This document shows, piece after piece, positions 1,882 through 23,258 of a stretch of 24,000 nt of DNA. The position numbers and the translations under genes were made by a program. Numbering within the stretch: position 1 is the stretch's first letter; every line of letters begins with the position of its first letter. The stretch is from Patescibacteria group bacterium (GTDB lineage: Bacteria; Patescibacteriota; Minisyncoccia; Phycocordibacterales; JACZSL01): assembly GCA_022561335.1 (NCBI GenBank), contig JADFRL010000004.1, positions 23,817 to 47,816 of the forward strand. Direction: 5' to 3'. A model generated the notes under the pieces. It was not told the DNA's origin. It saw nothing but the letters and a program-made list of their open reading frames with translations, and did no database searches.

Positions 1882-2733
1882 TCAAGCTGACAGGGGTGGG
1901 TCCATACGCACATGAACAAGTTCAACGCCTTTCGGAATCAGAACCTCTTGCGCTCCTAAAAGCGAGTACCCTTCGGCATAGTACACATGCTTTATGCCAG
2001 AATTGGCAATGGCATACGCGCACGGTGGGCATGGAAATGTTGTTATATAGAGAGATGCTCCTTCCAGGCATACTCCGTTACGCGCCGCAGCACTAATGAT
2101 GCCCACCTCCGCGTGAAGCGCAGACGACATCTCAATTGACTCTCCCGGCTCAAAGTGACTTCTGGGGTCACCTACGAGATAAGGAGTATGCTCCGAGGGT
2201 TGATGCCTGTTAAACGCACCGAAAAGAATAGCCCCGTCCTTCACTGCAATAGCGCCGACTTGACGCCACCAATCAGAACTCTTCTCGGATTGCTCATACG
2301 CCCTCCCCATGAGTTCGCGGTCGAGTTCCTTATATGTCACCGCCCTGTGTTCAATGGGCGCATTTTTCTTTCGAGAACTGCCCCAATCCCAGCGAAGCCA
2401 GACCGATTCATAATGAATCAACGTGCCCTTGAAGTACTTCTCCGCAAGAGCATGAGAAACATCTTCGTCCGGCATCACGAGCGAACTTTCAGACATGAGA
2501 GCCCTGATTCCTTCCGACTTAAGGACATGAACCTCAGAGAAAATACCTAGAGAGCGTAGCATCCGTACAACATCTTCCGGCGTGTTTGCCGGAAGGTTCC
2601 GCACGAGGCTCGTGTGTTCCTTGATGAGCTCGGAGCCCATCACATAGAGCACCCCACCTTCATACTTTCGGAAGAATTCGATGTACCCTCGATGCGGGGA
2701 AGGAACGTAGGAAACGATGATTGCCTTCGACAT
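1882..2733 (-). CDS. dCMP/cytidine deaminase-fold protein with an extra ~125-aa N-terminal domain
   Basis: C-terminal half carries the zinc motifs HAEVGIISAAARNG ... TTFPCPPCAYAI. The N-terminal domain (MSKAIIVSYVPSPHRGYIEFF...) is unassigned. Its start overlaps the upstream gene's stop (TGATG). Confidence 0.85.
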   Translation of the reverse strand: MSKAIIVSYVPSPHRGYIEFFRKYEGGVLYVMGSELIKEHTSLVRNLPANTPEDVVRMLRSLGIFSEVHVLKSEGIRALMSESSLVMPDEDVSHALAEKYFKGTLIHYESVWLRWDWGSSRKKNAPIEHRAVTYKELDRELMGRAYEQSEKSSDWWRQVGAIAVKDGAILFGAFNRHQPSEHTPYLVGDPRSHFEPGESIEMSSALHAEVGIISAAARNGVCLEGASLYITTFPCPPCAYAIANSGIKHVYYAEGYSLLGAQEVLIPKGVELVHVRMDPPLSA

Positions 2734-3383
2734 CAGTCATCTCCCTTGAAATAGCCCGTAATGGTCTTCTGCACCAAATCGCCAAGTTCCGAAGCACCAT
2801 CAATAGCAACCCGACGTATACGAGCAGACGTTGATGTTTCCGCCTGTGGTTCCAAGTTCACCAAGTGACCACAATATTCCTTGAGGCTTTCGAAATCAGG
2901 CAGATCTTTTGTCGACATCGAAACAATGCGGACATCCGGCATGACGATCTTGTAGAGCGTGTCCTTTTCGTACTGCGGTGTCACGATGTCTACCGCACGA
3001 AGGTATGAGAGAACTTGATATCGCTCATCTTCCGGTACGATCGGACGAGTCGGCCCTTTGCGCTCCCGCGTCAACTTGTCGACGTCGACACCAATAACCA
3101 TGATCACACGCTCAGCTTTAGGACAAAGCTGTTCTGCATCTGATCGGCCACGTGTAATATATTTCGCATGGCCAATATGAAAGAGATCCCAGACGCCCAT
3201 AGTAAGCGCGACCGCACAACCCATCTTCCGAAACTGCTCGAGCAACTCGTTGAGTTCATCGTGGTTCGGAACGAATCGATCATCAAATGTCCCGACACCC
3301 CTCACAATTCGCGTTGCGCGCTGCATCAGAGGATTTGGTTTTGTGAGTGTATAACTACCCACCTTTCTTTTCGTACTTCTCAT
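2733..3383 (-). CDS. Cytidylyl/adenylyltransferase-family protein (HxGH nucleotidyltransferase, TagD / RfaE-domain-II-like)
   Basis: GVWDLFHIGHAKYI (HxGH) plus VIGVDVDKLTRERKGPTRPIVPEDERYQVLSYLRAVDIV. GAGAGG Shine-Dalgarno 5 nt before the ATG. Confidence 0.8.
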   Translation of the reverse strand: MRSTKRKVGSYTLTKPNPLMQRATRIVRGVGTFDDRFVPNHDELNELLEQFRKMGCAVALTMGVWDLFHIGHAKYITRGRSDAEQLCPKAERVIMVIGVDVDKLTRERKGPTRPIVPEDERYQVLSYLRAVDIVTPQYEKDTLYKIVMPDVRIVSMSTKDLPDFESLKEYCGHLVNLEPQAETSTSARIRRVAIDGASELGDLVQKTITGYFKGDD

Positions 3384-3430
3384 GATAACCTCTCTGTGAA
3401 GATCTAAACTATCGACAGGATAGCACTTTC

Positions 3431-3467
3431 CTTTAAAAACAAAAGGCTCGACAATTTCGAGCCTTTT
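3431..3467 (-). terminator. Rho-independent terminator after rplK
   Basis: GGCTCGA-CAATT-TCGAGCC hairpin (3445-3463). On the minus strand it is followed by TTTTGTTTTT. Confidence 0.75.
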
Positions 3468-3497
3468 GTACTATTTATTAAATAGAAAGATATTATT

Positions 3498-3920
3498 TTA
3501 CTTCACCTCGATGCCCATCGAACGAGCCGTCCCTTCGATGATGCGCATAGCGGCATCAATATCGTTTGCATTCAGGTCGGGCATTTTAATTTCGGCAATT
3601 TCCTTGACTTGAGCCTTGGTCACGGTTCCGGCTTTGCTCACCAAATTCTTGCCGGATCCTTTGGGTTTGCCGATCGCCTTGAGGAGAAGTTGTGAGGCAA
3701 GAGGAGTCCTCAATACAAAATCGAAGCTGCGATCTTCATATACCAAAATTTCAACAGGAACAATGTTGCCGACCATATCGGAAGTCGCTTCATTGAATCG
3801 GTTTACAAAATCACCTATATTGATGCCCGCCTGCCCAAGCGCAGGACCAATCGGCGGTGCAGGTGTCGCCTTACCGCCCTGAATTTGAAGTTTTAATTTT
3901 CTTTCCACCTTTTTTGCCAT
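3498..3920 (-). CDS. rplK: 50S ribosomal protein L11
   Basis: [35 protein letters not shown]... is canonical L11. Confidence 0.97.
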
Positions 3921-4100: not shown

Positions 4101-4646
4101 TTAAACCTTTTTTACTTGGAGAAAATCCAATTCAATCGGCGTATCGCGGCCAAACATTGACACCATGACCTTGATCTTACCCTGTTCTTCATCAATTTCT
4201 CCAATTTTCCCTTCAAGTTCCTTGAAGGGTCCGTCAATAATAGTCACCGAATCATCAATGTTTAAATCAATCTTGTGCTTTACGGTATCAGTTTCCATAC
4301 GCTTAAAGAGATTGTCCACCTCCTCCTGCGAAAGCGGAACGGGGTGAATGCCTGAGCCGACAAAACCGGTAACTCGCGGTGTGTTGCGAACTACATACCA
4401 AGAATAATCAGTTACTATCATATCAACCATAATATAACCGGGATAAATTTTCTCATCCTCTACTATACGTTTTCCTCCTTTAATTTTTATCTTTTTTTCA
4501 GTAGGGACAATAACATTAAAAATTAAATCGCCCAAACCAAGCGACTCTATACGCTGCTTCAAATTACGCAGGACGGCATTCTCATAGCCGGCATACGTAT
4601 GGATGGCATACCAATTTCTCTCTTGATGAGCTTCCTGTTTTGCCAT
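4101..4646 (-). CDS. nusG: Transcription termination/antitermination factor NusG
   Basis: NWYAIHTYAGYENAV NGN domain and a C-terminal KOW (VTIIDGPFKELEGKIGEIDEEQGKIKV). Sits in the secE-nusG-rplK synteny. Confidence 0.95.
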   Translation of the reverse strand: MAKQEAHQERNWYAIHTYAGYENAVLRNLKQRIESLGLGDLIFNVIVPTEKKIKIKGGKRIVEDEKIYPGYIMVDMIVTDYSWYVVRNTPRVTGFVGSGIHPVPLSQEEVDNLFKRMETDTVKHKIDLNIDDSVTIIDGPFKELEGKIGEIDEEQGKIKVMVSMFGRDTPIELDFLQVKKV

Positions 4647-4648
4647 AG

Positions 4649-4834
4649 TTAGTTAAAAATAAAAATATCGAGGAGTTTTGTAAAAACAAAATCAAAAAAA
4701 CCAAGAAAGAGCGAGGTGAGAATAGAAACAATAACAATGAGAATCGTAAAGCTAATGGTTTGTTTTCGTGTCGGCCAGTTCACATGCTTAAGCTCGCCTC
4801 TGGTGTCTTTAAAATATTGAATCAGTCGGTTCAT
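4649..4834 (-). CDS. secE: Preprotein translocase subunit SecE
   Basis: 61 aa, ELKHVNWPTRKQT followed by a single TM helix. Positioned immediately upstream of nusG. Confidence 0.9.
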   Translation of the reverse strand: MNRLIQYFKDTRGELKHVNWPTRKQTISFTILIVIVSILTSLFLGFFDFVFTKLLDIFIFN

Positions 4835-4960
4835 CCCGTTAGAGGCAGGTCGCGGTCGATAAACCGCGCTGCAGAGTTATTATATTTTTAAACAAGATTC
4901 GATAGTTCCTCATACTTTTTGATCATCCATCCAGCGACCGCGGCCTCTAACGGGATTCAT
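4829..4960. repeat. Inverted-repeat element copy A (132 bp) overlapping the secE start codon
   Basis: Arms 4835-4858 (cccgttagaggcAGGTcgcggtcg) and 4935-4954 (cgaccgcggcctctaacggg) pair over 12+8 bp with a 4-nt bulge. Flanks are gTTCAT (4829-4834) and aTTCAT (4955-4960). A 17-mer at 4946-4962 is identical to 9094-9110. Confidence 0.8.
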
Positions 4961-8436: not shown

Positions 8437-9027
8437 CTAAACTCCTCCATCGTTAAGAATACTGTTGACCTTCTCCTTCATCTCGTTAAATTTCATGGGG
8501 CCGCGTTTGTGAATGAGAATATTTCCGTCTTTATCAACAAAAAGAGTTTCAGGCATCGAAAAACCACCAATAGACTTATAGAACGAATCGCTTGGGTCAT
8601 TTAGAAAAAGTAACTTACCGGTTACTTCAAGTTCATCGGTGAACTTTTTCTGTCTCGCGGTCGATTCTGCACGGTCGATGGCAATGATAATGATGCGATC
8701 TCCCATTTCCTCTTGTAATTTTGCAAAATCAGGAAGCTCATCAAGACAAAACGGACACCATACTGCCCATGAATTAATAATAAGAGGTTTTCCTTTAAAA
8801 TCAGAAAGGCTTACTTCGTTTCCATTCCAGTCATTTAGTGTAAACGCAGGAACTTGATCGAATTTCTCTTCTTGCGCCGTATTCTTTATGGCTGTTCCTT
8901 GTGTGTCTTCTTGGGCTATCTTACTGCCGTCGGAAAAAACAAGTAACCCTCCGATAATGAGAACAATGAAAATAGTTATAACAATGATGATGTTTCTATT
9001 CACCTTGCCGGAAATTTGTTTTATCAT
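8437..9027 (-). CDS. TlpA/ResA-like thiol:disulfide oxidoreductase (second copy), membrane anchored
   Basis: TM anchor plus INSWAVWCPFCLDELPDF (WCxxC). Confidence 0.85.
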   Translation of the reverse strand: MIKQISGKVNRNIIIVITIFIVLIIGGLLVFSDGSKIAQEDTQGTAIKNTAQEEKFDQVPAFTLNDWNGNEVSLSDFKGKPLIINSWAVWCPFCLDELPDFAKLQEEMGDRIIIIAIDRAESTARQKKFTDELEVTGKLLFLNDPSDSFYKSIGGFSMPETLFVDKDGNILIHKRGPMKFNEMKEKVNSILNDGGV

Positions 9028-9041
9028 AGTTGTTTTGTATG

Positions 9042-9108
9042 ATACATCCTGTTAGTATAATTGACGATTAAAAACAACTCAGTTGTTTTTAATTCTAACG
9101 GGATTCAT
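9042..9108. repeat. Inverted-repeat element copy B (short, 67 bp)
   Basis: Arms cctgttagTATaatt (9048-9062) and aattctaacggg (9091-9102). Flanks are atacat and attcat. The interior is a 9-bp hairpin AAAAACAAC-TCA-GTTGTTTTT (9070-9090). Confidence 0.7.
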
Positions 9109-9167
9109 AATATTGTTGTATTATGTATTAATGATTAAATACTTAGAAAACATATTAATTATATGGA

Positions 9168-11587: not shown

Positions 11588-12076
11588 CTAATAGAAAAAC
11601 CGTTGAGTCCCGTCCTCACAATCATCAAAAAACAGTGACTCCTGCCCGCTACTTGAATCTAAAATAACAGAGTAGCATATGGTGTCTGACTTCCCCGATT
11701 TCCCAAATCTGTCTCTGCTGTCAACATAGACATGCGCCTTGCATCCCAGCGGCGCTTCTCCCTCTACAACTGCAGTGGTATAGATAGGGTCCCCCTCGAT
11801 AGTTAAAAGTTTTTGATGAATCTTAGCCAATCGACATCCATCGTATGCTTCTTTAAAACATTCCCGCATACTTTTATTATATCCAAAGCCTCCTCTCAGC
11901 TCTTCATTGCCGCAATCCTTAAACTGGCTGTCCCAATCACGATAAAATTGAAATGCTTCGCCTCCGTTTTCAGATACATCATTGCCGATAATACCTGCAC
12001 CAAAATAGAATGCGGTCCCTGCCGCTGCTACTATGAGCACTCCTATTATAATTCCAGTCAGCTGTTTTTTATCCAT
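11588..12076 (-). CDS. Hypothetical Cys-containing membrane-anchored protein (possibly DUF4362-like)
   Basis: Starts MDKKQLTGIIIGVLIVAAAG (TM anchor). LLTIEGDPIYTTAVVEG resembles the TxEGDPI core I associate with DUF4362. The track's GTG 12103 start would read through the repeat arm, so ATG 12076 is preferred. Confidence 0.6.
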   Translation of the reverse strand: MDKKQLTGIIIGVLIVAAAGTAFYFGAGIIGNDVSENGGEAFQFYRDWDSQFKDCGNEELRGGFGYNKSMRECFKEAYDGCRLAKIHQKLLTIEGDPIYTTAVVEGEAPLGCKAHVYVDSRDRFGKSGKSDTICYSVILDSSSGQESLFFDDCEDGTQRFFY

Positions 12077-12201
12077 CCCGTTAGTAATAGGACGCGAACA
12101 CACAGCATCCTAGTTCCTCATTTAAGGTGTGGTTAAAAATCGACCTTTGCCATATCATATAAAAATTATTTGTTACGCGTCCTACTACTAATGGAATCCA
12201 T
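12071..12201. repeat. Inverted-repeat element copy C (131 bp) overlapping the start codon of the 11588-12076 gene
   Basis: Arms 12077-12096 (cccgttagtaataggacgcg) and 12176-12195 (cgcgtcctactactaatgga) are complementary at 17 of 20 positions. Both flanks are a perfect ATCCAT (12071-12076, 12196-12201). It shares the interior 11-mer tagttcctcat (12111-12121) with copy A (4903-4913). Confidence 0.8.
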
Positions 12202-12526
12202 ACATCAAATTATAGCAAAGATAAACTATGCAACTTCGCGAAGCTTCTGCTGAGAAATATTAAACAAATACACTGAAAACGTAAAACGCCAGCCGTAACT
12301 GACGTCGTACGCTATGCATTATGCAGTAACACCTTTGTCCGTCTCTAGGTGTTACTTAGAGTTGGACATGCGTATGCATGCTCTAATTGTAATTCGCTTT
12401 TGTCTTTTTTCAAATAAAAGATGTGCATAAGTGTTGCATAACCTGTGTCTAAGCCACTCAAGTATATTTTTTAGCCCATGTTCACCTTTCTACACACCTT
12501 ACATACGACAAGAAACGTCCAGTAAT

Positions 12527-16028: not shown

Positions 16029-16784
16029 TTAATTTTCAAGCTCTTTGAGCGCATGCTTAAAATCATCCGGCAGTGGTGCCTCAACCTTTAACGTTGTCGC
16101 TCTGGGCATTGTAATCACAAGTGATCGAGCGTGAAGCGCAAGCCGTTTGAAGCCAAGTTTGCATGGTCGTTTAGGCGCATAAAGCTTGTCGCATACTATA
16201 GGATGGTGTAGGGCTTTGAAGTGAACACGCAACTGATGGGTACGGCCCGTTTTAGGAAAAGCTTTAGCATAGGTAAATCCTTTTCCCTTTTTGATAACCG
16301 TAAACTCCGTAATAGCCCCGCGGTGTTCGCCCCGTGCCCCGGGTTGAGCCGAGCGCAGCCGAAAATCTTTAGCGCTTCGTGCAATAGGCCGGTTAATGAC
16401 CCCGCGTTCCTCTTTTAGTTCACCATAAAGAAATACATTGTATATTTTCTCAACAAGTCTACTTTTAAATTGATCCTTCACATAGAAATAGGTATGCTGA
16501 TTTTTTACCAGCATTAACACTCCTGAAGTTTCCCTATCAAGCCGATGCACAATGCCCGGGCGAGAAATAGTATCACCCGATTTAAGAACCGAAGGCTCGC
16601 CCACTTCTTTTGATTCCGGATACTGCTCAAGCATCCAGGTAGCTACCGTATAGTCCTTTGTCCTGCCATCGGAGTGTATAACAAGACCTGCAGGTTTATT
16701 AATAACTACTACACTTTCATCTTCATAGAGAATAGGAATCTCCACCCTACTGGAAGTTTTTCTTTTTTCTCCGTCAGCATCCAT
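16029..16784 (-). CDS. RluA-family pseudouridine synthase (no S4 domain)
   Basis: VVVINKPAGLVIH and the catalytic HRLDRETSGVLMLVKN motif, plus GRTHQLRVH. Confidence 0.9.
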   Translation of the reverse strand: MDADGEKRKTSSRVEIPILYEDESVVVINKPAGLVIHSDGRTKDYTVATWMLEQYPESKEVGEPSVLKSGDTISRPGIVHRLDRETSGVLMLVKNQHTYFYVKDQFKSRLVEKIYNVFLYGELKEERGVINRPIARSAKDFRLRSAQPGARGEHRGAITEFTVIKKGKGFTYAKAFPKTGRTHQLRVHFKALHHPIVCDKLYAPKRPCKLGFKRLALHARSLVITMPRATTLKVEAPLPDDFKHALKELEN

Positions 16785-16835
16785 ACATCAATCGGTTTAA
16801 TTATACAGCACTCCTAACGGGGTGGCGGCTTCCCC

Positions 16836-17925: not shown

Positions 17926-17998
<73 letters not shown>

Positions 17999-18011
17999 CT
18001 ACAAACAATGA

Positions 18012-18045
18012 ACCCAACAGGATGTGTTGGGTAATTTTGTTTATT
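18012..18045 (+). terminator. Rho-independent terminator after tRNA-Val
   Basis: ACCCAACA-GGATG-TGTTGGGT followed by AATTTTGTTTATT. Confidence 0.65.
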
Positions 18046-18047
18046 GA

Positions 18048-18064
18048 GCGGTGAGGGATTTGAA
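18048..18064. repeat. Inverted 17-nt copy of the tRNA-Val T-loop-to-acceptor segment
   Basis: GCGGTGAGGGATTTGAA is the exact reverse complement of 17979-17995 (TTCAAATCCCTCACCGC). Confidence 0.85.
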
Positions 18065-18610: not shown

Positions 18611-18654
18611 TAAACCAAAACCACATGGCATTAATGCCATGTGGTTTTGGTTTA
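18611..18654. repeat. 44-bp perfect palindrome adjacent to the tRNA-Arg 3' end (likely bidirectional hairpin/terminator)
   Basis: TAAACCAAAACCACATGGCATT|AATGCCATGTGGTTTTGGTTTA, with 22-nt arms and no loop. Confidence 0.8.
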
Positions 18655-18660
18655 TCTTAG

Positions 18661-18732
18661 TGCCCCCGGGAGGAATCGAACCCCCATCCAAAGCTTAGAA
18701 GTCTCTTGTTTTATCCATTAAACTACAGGGGC
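18661..18732 (-). tRNA. tRNA-Arg (anticodon TCT)
   Basis: GCCCCTG TA GTTT AATGGATA AAAC A AGAGA CTTCTAA GCTTT GGATG GGGGG TTCGATT CCTCC CGGGGGC A. There is one A.G mismatch at 31:39. CCA is not encoded. Confidence 0.88.
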
Positions 18733-18867: not shown

Positions 18868-18921
18868 AACCCCCATCCAAAGCTTAGAAGTCTCTTGTTT
18901 TATCCATTAAACTACAGGGGC
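18868..18921 (-). repeat. Exact 54-nt duplicate of the tRNA-Arg 5' portion (positions 1 to ~54), lacking a functional T-arm/3' acceptor
   Basis: 18868-18921 is identical to 18679-18732 (aacccccatccaaagcttagaagtctcttgttttatccattaaactacaggggc). The sequence beyond the T-loop breakpoint diverges (ctgcttc versus ggaatcg). Confidence 0.9.
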
Positions 18922-22997: not shown

Positions 22998-23015
22998 GCG
23001 GTGGGGGTGGGATTC
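22998..23015 (-). repeat. tRNA-Ser 3' fragment (acceptor 3' strand, T-stem and part of the T-loop) abutting the ruvX start codon
   Basis: gcggtgggggtgggattc is identical to 23171-23188 (18 of 18). Similarity ends in the T-loop. It lies 2 nt from the ruvX ATG (22993-22995). Confidence 0.85.
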
Positions 23016-23164: not shown

Positions 23165-23171
23165 ACCAATG

Positions 23172-23258
23172 CGGTGGGGGTGGGATTCGAACCCACGGTC
23201 CGCGTGAACGGACTCTGGTTTTCAAGACCAGCGCCTTCGACCCCTCAGCCACCCCACC
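23172..23258 (-). tRNA. tRNA-Ser (anticodon TGA), type II with long variable arm
   Basis: GGTGGGG ... CTGGT CTTGAAA ACCAG, variable stem GTCCG/CGGAC, GTGGG TTCGAAT CCCAC CCCCACC G. CCA is not encoded. Confidence 0.9.

Follow-up and report, generated by a model that had tools for sequence, protein, structure and literature searches.

MITE-like hairpin elements that duplicate ATGNA at gene starts: a probable mobile family of the Patescibacteria

Correia elements of Neisseria, ERIC/IRU and RUP are small palindromic repeats of bacteria that resemble transposable elements of the miniature inverted-repeat type (MITEs). The Candidate Phyla Radiation (CPR, Patescibacteria) has tiny genomes that are thought to hold little mobile DNA. 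Here we describe a hairpin element, copy A, that lies at the start codon of secE in a 24,000-nucleotide (nt) stretch from a Patescibacteria group bacterium (assembly GCA_022561335.1, contig JADFRL010000004.1, positions 23,817 to 47,816), which we call the window. Integration occurs at ATGNA, with duplication of these five bases; the right-hand copy of the repeat stays the start codon of the gene, and the left-hand copy keeps the native promoter and leader. As in MITEs, the element is short, has 14-base-pair (bp) complementary termini and contains only a short, unconserved open reading frame (ORF); it is flanked by a target-site duplication, ATGNA on both sides; and there are both filled and empty sites (the latter in the relatives L131 and L128) as well as multiple copies per window or locus. 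We consider it rather likely that copy A is a member of a family of mobile, non-autonomous hairpins found across the CPR/Patescibacteria, which insert at ATGNA with duplication and in which translational coupling would rescue the gene. The initial annotation of the window had proposed a MITE-like element with a start-codon-like target and duplications, a proposal that the additional copies, the empty sites, the matching flanks and the covariation of the arms now support.

Read on the minus strand, positions 4960 to 4830 are ATGAA-T-CCCGTTAGAGGC-CGC-GGTCGC, about 80 nt, and GCGACC-T-GCCTCTAACGGG-ATGAA-C. The features of the locus, in which P1 and P2 denote the terminal and the second helix, are the following.

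4835..4955, minus strand: copy A, 121 nt, a T followed by CCCGTTAG ... CTAACGGG (sequence; covariance model 86.7 bits; missing from the orthologous site in L131 and L128)
4956..4960, minus strand: upstream ATGAA repeat, which remains joined to the native secE leader (sequence, relatives, family statistics)
4830..4834, minus strand: downstream ATGAA repeat, i.e. the secE start codon (4834-4832) and two further bases (aligns with the ATGAGC start of L128 secE)
4943..4956, minus strand: P1 5' strand, ATCCCGTTAGAGGC (folding; pair counts in 116 copies)
4833..4846, minus strand: P1 3' strand, GCCTCTAACGGGAT, which takes in the A and U of the secE AUG (folding; pair counts)
4934..4939, minus strand: P2 5' strand, GGTCGC, preceded by the 3-nt bulge CGC at 4940-4942 (long-range P2 topology common to 39 copies)
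4848..4853, minus strand: P2 3' strand, GCGACC, followed by a bulged T at 4847 (folding and family topology)
4863..4868, minus strand: internal CGCGGT, whose alternative local partner is ACCGCG (4851-4856), replacing the long-range P2 (the minimum-free-energy fold uses the local hairpin)
4910..4960, minus strand: short ORF from the upstream ATG, MNPVRGRGRWMDDQKV and then a stop (sequence; family-wide frame statistics)
4649..4834, minus strand: secE, 61 amino acids (Pfam SecE)
5030-5003, minus strand: native secE promoter-like site, TTGACT-16-TACTAT, upstream of the insertion
4996-4979, minus strand: secE leader hairpin with a U-run, upstream of the insertion and kept in L131 and L128

The inverted repeat does engulf the start of secE as initially described, the last ATG (4834-4832) being the start codon of the gene. 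The hairpin is also real, but it was parsed differently at first: instead of 12 + 8 bp with an ACCT bulge, the arrangement common to the family joins a 14-bp helix to a 6-bp helix across a 3-nt/1-nt bulge. The predicted RNA fold of copy A has a free energy of -47.8 kcal/mol (z = -3.9) and consists of the 14-bp terminal helix, the 3-nt/1-nt bulge, the short second helix and the local alternative hairpin. Judging from this fold, the burial of the start codon is likely to affect initiation to some extent.

The history of the insertion can be read from close relatives. An identical element is present in contigs of the same species and in a strain with a 98% identical NusG. In L131 and L128, whose NusG proteins are 82% and 85% identical, the element is absent; the alignment has a clean 128-nt gap at the secE start, and both the leader hairpin and the SecE coding sequence are retained around it, so that empty sites, which the initial annotation had named as evidence to look for, are seen at secE in both relatives. 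The secE start of L128, ATGAGCAGACTT, aligns with the right-hand ATGAACCGACTG of copy A. Because the empty relatives keep both flanks and the L128 start aligns with the right-hand repeat, the alignment indicates that the pre-insertion site is ...GCGATGCTT-ATGAA-CCGACTG, to which a T, 120 nt and a second ATGAA were added.

The family was collected with the pattern ATCCCGTTAG-N85-115-CTAACGGGAT, which fixes 20 bases and is identical to its reverse complement. The further copies that had been anticipated elsewhere were found in both collections, with matches at no fewer than 120 loci in the GTDB species genomes and at least 120 loci in the JGI metagenomes; about 17 sites would be expected by chance in 596 Gb according to our own arithmetic. 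The 8-mer CCCGTTAG alone is not enriched (10 occurrences with up to one mismatch in the window, 11.7 expected), i.e. it is the paired arrangement that excludes chance. The family counts given here cover the 253 distinct copies among the matches listed, 131 from genomes and 122 new ones from metagenomes. Among the matches listed, those with a name are nearly all Patescibacteria: Saccharibacteria, Paceibacteria/Parcubacteria groups, Levyibacteriota, Kerfeldbacteria, Microgenomates and others. Viral contigs gave zero matches to the pattern. Most copies are 105-135 bp long, with a short class of 65-80 bp. Several loci carry two to three copies or arrays, as does the window with its three copies; in the tandem arrays (L069, L113, L024, L021) neighbouring elements share one ATGAAT. 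There are near-identical pairs of copies within one contig, and the pair in L072 differs by a compensatory change from G-C to A-T in the inner hairpin. In the window, Rfam returned only tRNAs and noise, both at the gathering score and with E values up to 10, and had no match at the site. A full-text literature search by core sequence and by topic (CPR with MITE, start codon, target-site duplication, leaderless) found no description, and the family is apparently previously undescribed. We note that a subfamily of 107-108 nt, whose arms are AGACCT/AGGTCT, is present in bins that carry the labels Sedimentisphaerales and Omnitrophota (L070 5534-5640, L088 439-546, L092 5455-5562); either the family extends beyond the CPR or these contigs are mis-binned.

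The search pattern required only AT at each end, not ATG. An ATG is formed at one end in 127/131 copies from genomes and 114/122 from metagenomes (241/253 combined), and about 110 and 101 of these ATGs, respectively (about 210 combined), open long ORFs of 80 to 900 codons. In 97 and 85 copies (182 combined) an upstream ATGN precedes ATCCC by exactly four bases, and here N is identical on both sides in 94/97 and 81/85 cases (175/182 combined). The fifth base of the repeat is A in 115 of 127 copies, and the sixth base on the right is free. From these sequences the target repeat is a 5-nt ATGNA followed by T; the direct repeat reported initially as a 6-bp ATGNAT is thus real, only shorter by one base. 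Occasional variants of 4 or 6 nt are seen. Broken left-hand copies carry point changes (GTG, ATA, CTG, ACG), as would be expected because this copy no longer serves as a start. No internal position was found that covaries with the N of ATGNA, and the bases 5' of P2 are identical between copies with N = A and N = G; the absence of a covarying internal base implies that the flanking repeat is derived from the target. Models with a 2-bp AT or TA duplication, and an intron model, leave the 5-nt repeat with its matching N unexplained. A short subfamily with the ends ACCCCGTTAG...CTAACGGGGT (L010 7483-7575; L061 434-510; L084 7469-7545) has 5-6-nt repeats other than ATG (TTGAC, GYGTAC), which implies that the size of the duplication is general and the ATG specificity belongs to the main family.

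It is conspicuous that in about 87% of the copies ATGNA is the start of a protein-coding gene. According to a crude census of 0.9 Mb of the same loci, ATGNA occurs 367 times at gene starts, about 1,700 times in non-coding sequence and about 5,200 times inside genes. Gene starts thus make up about 17% of the non-coding-plus-start occurrences as against about 87% for the elements, i.e. roughly five times what the avoidance of coding sequence would give. The sequences upstream of the left ATG are similar to those of ordinary starts: a -10-like box lies 5-8 nt away in 31% versus 27%, and a Shine-Dalgarno-like motif is present in 10% versus 10%, so that a target preference for leaderless promoters was rejected. 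In the window itself the genes mostly have no Shine-Dalgarno site. The downstream proteins of 107 copies contain 107 Pfam families, none of them more than four times, including SSB, topoisomerase I (TopA), PheT, L9, L17, adenylate kinase and GyrA. In other words, the downstream families are unrelated and do not form a regulon.

P1 was evaluated by pair counts in 116 copies. It has 14 bp, and eleven of the pairs are invariant or nearly so, ten of these being set by the search pattern. The three pairs that follow vary between A-T, G-C and C-G, and each has about 50 double changes. Altogether 99.3% of the P1 cells are paired, a value that no shuffled or slid control approaches; the arm extensions, suspected at first from three copies to vary in a complementary manner, do so throughout the family. 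P1 is followed by a single unpaired T on the 3' strand and then by P2 (6-9 bp, usually GG...CC). The same P2 helix sequences are used in two topologies: a local hairpin just before the 3' arm, e.g. ACGGAAATC-TAAA-GATTTCC-T, and a long-range helix in which the P2 5' strand lies 3 nt past the P1 5' arm, as in copy A. P2 cells are 96% paired with 58 double-change cells, in a set that was selected for the local hairpin, which makes the test partly circular. The interior is A-rich and strongly polar, as seen from the sense to antisense counts of GGGAT/GGGAA (40:2), GTCGA (22:3) and ACGGA (27:4), and about 95% of the copies have one orientation relative to the gene, about 5% being reversed. Many copies contain an internal CGGGAW box shortly past the 5' arm, a dozen of them the exact CTAACGGG. 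A Shine-Dalgarno-like motif inside the element was not found as a family feature. Neither was there a consistent strand or position signal for an internal sense promoter in the family, and a consensus scan of copy A found none. The helices clearly matter for propagation, and they may be relevant to mobility at the DNA level alone.

The left ATG opens a short reading frame, M-(N/D)-P-V-R-..., whose peptides are not conserved beyond the ends dictated by P1. The frame of this AUG is free of stops through the interior in 35/97 and 36/85 copies; the other frames are open in 10, 8, 14 and 5 copies, and shuffled interiors in 9/97. The share of open copies depends on the frame class: in both sets together it is 1/38 if the frame is that of the gene, 48/83 if it ends at the UAA of cUAAcgggAUG, and 21/61 if it ends at the UGA of AUGA. 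Since the peptides are unconserved, it seems to be translation itself, ending beside the true AUG, that is kept. The frame bias suggests, at the level of sequence, a termination-reinitiation coupling that opens the hairpin.

These data can be combined into the following scheme. The conserved foot of the hairpin would be the recognition site of a putative enzyme that makes a 5-bp staggered insertion. Once inserted, the element would be transcribed within the host mRNA, and ribosomes would initiate at the left AUG, the context of which is unchanged. They would translate the short ORF (M-N/D-P-V-R...) into the element, opening P1 on the way, and in many copies would terminate at the UAA of cUAAcgggAUG or the UGA of AUGA beside the true AUG and reinitiate there. 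Such a built-in coupling would explain why insertions at the start codons of essential genes are tolerated. We class the family as MITE-like, superphylum-wide, structured, polar and start-codon-specific, with a probable built-in translational hand-over.

Several observations weigh against this scheme. G-U and A-C mismatches are equally frequent in the helices (32 vs 36), so the resident copies show no sign of selection on RNA pairing. The open-frame counts are not phylogenetically independent and are uncorrected for shared descent. The short ORF has an early stop in about 60% of the copies, including all three of the window (codon 17 in A, codon 10 in B, codon 12 in C), hence coupling cannot be the universal solution and is the weakest link for secE. 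The junction varies, in that CCC is separated from the repeat by 0, 1 or 2 bases. In a few copies the upstream copy of the ATG is missing, and these lie 4-14 nt after TGnTATAAT (L051 4794-4918; L020 7174-7260, minus strand; L104 570-690, minus strand; L026 1100-1233); three of these share AaCTTGT right before CCCGTTAG, and copies with such a promoter-like left flank could be separately transcribed or master copies. Finally, in about 1.7 Mb of loci these termini were not seen around any transposase gene or on a longer autonomous version.

This last search included pairs of termini 300-5000 bp apart and lone ends; it found no autonomous insertion sequence (IS) and almost no lone ends, none of them convincing. 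ORF clustering of about 240 element-centred loci found IS200-like Y1_Tnp (PF01797) genes in six of them, each between short hairpins of its own.

L026, 278-988: Y1_Tnp gene
L094, 1746-2474: Y1_Tnp gene
L044, 3586-4245: Y1_Tnp gene
L250, 244-939: Y1_Tnp gene, with the hairpins CTGCGTTAGG/CCTAACGCAG that share CGTTAG/CTAACG with the foot of the element
L123, 6902-7615: Y1_Tnp gene
L015, 7335-7781: Y1_Tnp gene

None of the six genes (0/6) is flanked by CCCGTTAG hairpins. As Y1 enzymes make no target duplication and no Y1 gene is flanked by the ends of the element, we regard these genes only as a lead.

One alternative, which we hold to be possible but not probable, is a start-codon-homing device: an enzyme, an RNA or a single-stranded intermediate would recognise real initiation sites instead of the pentamer alone, and the ribosome would be handed to the true AUG by termination-reinitiation or, during initiation, by a hop across the folded hairpin. 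Rescue by RNA processing, i.e. an RNase III-type cut within the irregular helix of 21-23 bp formed by P1, the bulge and P2 of the same mobile element, appears unlikely to us. Cleavage in P1 would leave an mRNA whose leader is unstructured and very short (...AACGGGAUG) and which is translated as leaderless messages are, a route that would suit genomes with few Shine-Dalgarno sites and many starts 5-8 nt past a -10 box; helix length and bulged architecture are kept in both P2 topologies, and RNase III cuts the Correia elements of Neisseria. However, the helices show no bias of G-U over A-C, and cleavage leaves unexplained why the short ORF is open in the two frames with AUG-adjacent stops. An outward-facing promoter in the same mobile element would start the transcript inside, so that the mRNA lacks the 5' arm and P1 would not form. 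The A/T-rich interior has TATAAT-like boxes (TAnAAT 69 sense vs 40 antisense), some copies have TGnTATAAT, and the strong orientation bias would fit, yet extended -10 motifs are more common in antisense (13 sense vs 24 antisense), motif positions are not fixed, the consensus scan found no sense-strand promoter inside copy A, and the frame bias of the short ORF is again left without explanation. We find this reading very doubtful.

A REP/REPIN-like or IS200/IS605-like element of single-stranded DNA, whose bulged hairpin foot would be recognised by a Y1 (HUH) tyrosine transposase, is suggested by the covarying hairpins, the one-sided bulged T, the strict polarity and the GTTAG foot, which recall REP (GTAG) and the ends of IS608, as well as by the Y1_Tnp genes in 6 of about 240 loci, one pair of whose hairpins shares CGTTAG. 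The enrichment of these genes is modest and roughly estimated, none of them lies between CCCGTTAG hairpins, no internal guide base covaries with N, and Y1 transposition produces no target duplication, yet ATGNA matches in 175/182 copies; we therefore judge this kind of element quite unlikely. Least probable by far is a fixed, non-mobile leader RNA that hides the start codon, such as a riboswitch, a thermometer or a switch that binds a protein. It would be in line with the AUG buried in P1, with the local alternative pairing, and with the CGGGAW or CTAACGGG box of many copies, which could compete for the 5' arm. However, relatives have empty sites, the flanks are duplicated, there are tandem arrays, the genes behind the copies are unrelated to one another (107 proteins with 107 Pfam families), Rfam has no matching family even at E up to 10, and the mismatches have no RNA-strand bias. 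A non-mobile regulator is thus largely refuted already, and the unrelated downstream genes and unbiased mismatches likewise leave the dedicated 5'-untranslated-region switch or decoy of the initial annotation without support.

Two further copies in the window, already recognised as related to copy A in the initial annotation, were recovered by a covariance model trained on copies from other genomes (about 44 bits, E 3e-7 for C and 27 bits, E 0.002 for B); the antisense strand scores far lower.

12069..12203, minus strand: copy C, 5' core decayed to CCATTAG (44.2 bits, E 3e-7)
9040..9110, minus strand: copy B, a short form with cores at 9102-9095 and 9055-9048 (26.6 bits, E 0.002)

Copy C is flanked by ATGGA (12201-12197) and ATGGA (12076-12072), the second of which is the start of a 162-amino-acid membrane-anchored protein. 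The flanks of copy B are ATGAA and ATGTA. Its 3' ATG (9047-9045) does not open the gene; the thioredoxin-like gene starts at 9027, 20 nt downstream. The 17-mer shared by A and B is real, and so is the alternative pairing of CGCGGT with ACCGCG in copy A. The 11-mer ATGAGGAACTA is shared by A and C as stated, but at different offsets, and it is not a feature of the family. No transposase gene is encoded near the copies in the window. The model also finds one copy in the relative L131 (19316-19448). In this copy the otherwise invariant core is altered on both arms (CCCGATAG/CTATCGGG) between perfect ATGGAT flanks, i.e. the recognition helix has undergone a compensated change.

A lone CCCGTTAG at 16814-16821 (minus strand) has no partner and lies 29 nt before the ATG of an rluA-like gene; it may be there by chance. 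The 13-mer TTGATGTATGGAT, with TATAAT before it, is shared by the left flank of copy C (12196-12208, minus strand) and the start of the rluA-like gene (16779-16791, minus strand). These sites may be a shared promoter/start module or a relic of the element.

The genes that follow secE are the following.

4101-4646, minus strand, after secE: nusG (Pfam NusG)
3498-3920, minus strand, after nusG: rplK (Pfam L11)

In the region 1882-3920 (minus strand) rplK is not followed by rplA; a cytidylyltransferase-like and then a dCMP-deaminase-like gene are found instead, which fits the Parcubacteria lineages that are known to lack L1. The promoter-like site of the secE-nusG operon directly precedes a G+C hairpin with a U-run, which looks like a terminator and is conserved in L131 (9745-9822) and L128 (9530-9600). 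This leader hairpin may serve to stabilise the 5' end or to attenuate the operon. Elsewhere in the window, the 5' part of tRNA-Arg(TCT) forms an exact 54-nt direct repeat (18679-18732 and 18868-18921, 189 nt apart), and the 3' end of tRNA-Ser an exact 18-nt repeat (22998-23015 and 23171-23188, 173 nt apart). Both att-like partial duplications of tRNA genes suggest past integrations. A perfect 44-nt palindrome (18611-18654) adjoins tRNA-Arg, and a 36-nt inverted repeat (17979-18064) overlaps the 3' end of tRNA-Val.

A single family with invariant ends extends across Saccharibacteria, Parcubacteria, Microgenomates and others, with copies exactly at the start codons of housekeeping genes, among them secE, ssb, topA, pheT and those of ribosomal proteins. 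If confirmed, this would be a transposition system with start-codon specificity, for which nothing comparable was found in Rfam or in the literature search. The copies would show, as a natural experiment, how genes tolerate a 120-nt hairpin between leader and AUG, with a bearing on initiation that proceeds largely without Shine-Dalgarno sites. They would also be a trap for annotation, as a source of miscalled start codons and spurious small ORFs, and a possible strain-level marker for metagenomes, and the enzyme could be a compact tool for site-specific insertion. If the element were a start-codon-homing device, it would be a new class of mobile element and would give a new view of how start codons are found in bacteria with few Shine-Dalgarno sites.

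In comparison with known systems, IS1380, ISH3 and IS1634, which are DDE families of ISfinder, have 4-6-bp duplications and C/CC ends and may therefore be candidates for the mobilising system, and IS1380 members often lie just upstream of start codons. No such transposase or full-length element with the termini described here was found in the loci. Integron attC sites are alike in size (57-141 bp), in the imperfect hairpin with conserved short cores at its foot, in the variable interior, the extrahelical bases and the position at ORF boundaries. However, their core order is opposite, RYYYAAC...GTTRRRY against GTTAG...CTAAC on either strand of the element, which reads 5'-CCCGTTAG ... CTAACGGG-3' on both strands, and the element has no cassette array and no integrase context but does have a flanking duplication. 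We rejected an attC origin because of the core order.

REP/REPIN sequences with their RAYT transposases and IS200/IS605-derived elements share with the family a hairpin in which structure is conserved over sequence, a bulge on one strand, a G(T)TAG-like foot and strand polarity. Nevertheless, they do not duplicate the target and are found mainly between genes or behind them, whereas nearly every copy of the element has a matching 5-nt repeat. REP/REPIN was rejected given the duplication and the other hairpins that flank the six Y1_Tnp genes, and an IS200/IS605-derived origin given the duplication and the absence of an internal guide that covaries with N.

The Rickettsia palindromic elements, like the bypass elements of T4 gene 60 and of Magnusiomyces mitochondria, are small mobile hairpins in or at genes that do not kill them. 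The Rickettsia elements, however, are translated in frame, and only 1/38 copies of in-frame length is without a stop here, so this type was also rejected. Bypass elements have matching take-off and landing codons, reminiscent of the two AUGs, but they have a stop right after take-off and lie inside ORFs, whereas the next codon in the element is NAU and not a stop. The evidence points to ordinary translation of the short ORF rather than to bypass.

With Correia, ERIC and RUP the element shares a length of about 100-150 bp, the lack of coding function, terminal inverted repeats in a long hairpin, many gene-near and, for the element presumably, co-transcribed copies, a target duplication and the absence of a transposase of its own. 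Those repeats, which are IS630-like, duplicate TA at varied intergenic positions, in contrast to ATGNA at start codons in about 87% of the copies here, and a 2-bp AT model would leave the matching N unexplained; an assignment to this type was thus rejected. The element is also unlike them in that its termini are invariant across a superphylum, its polar second helix occurs in two topologies, and the frame of its short ORF is adjusted so as to end next to the AUG of the gene.

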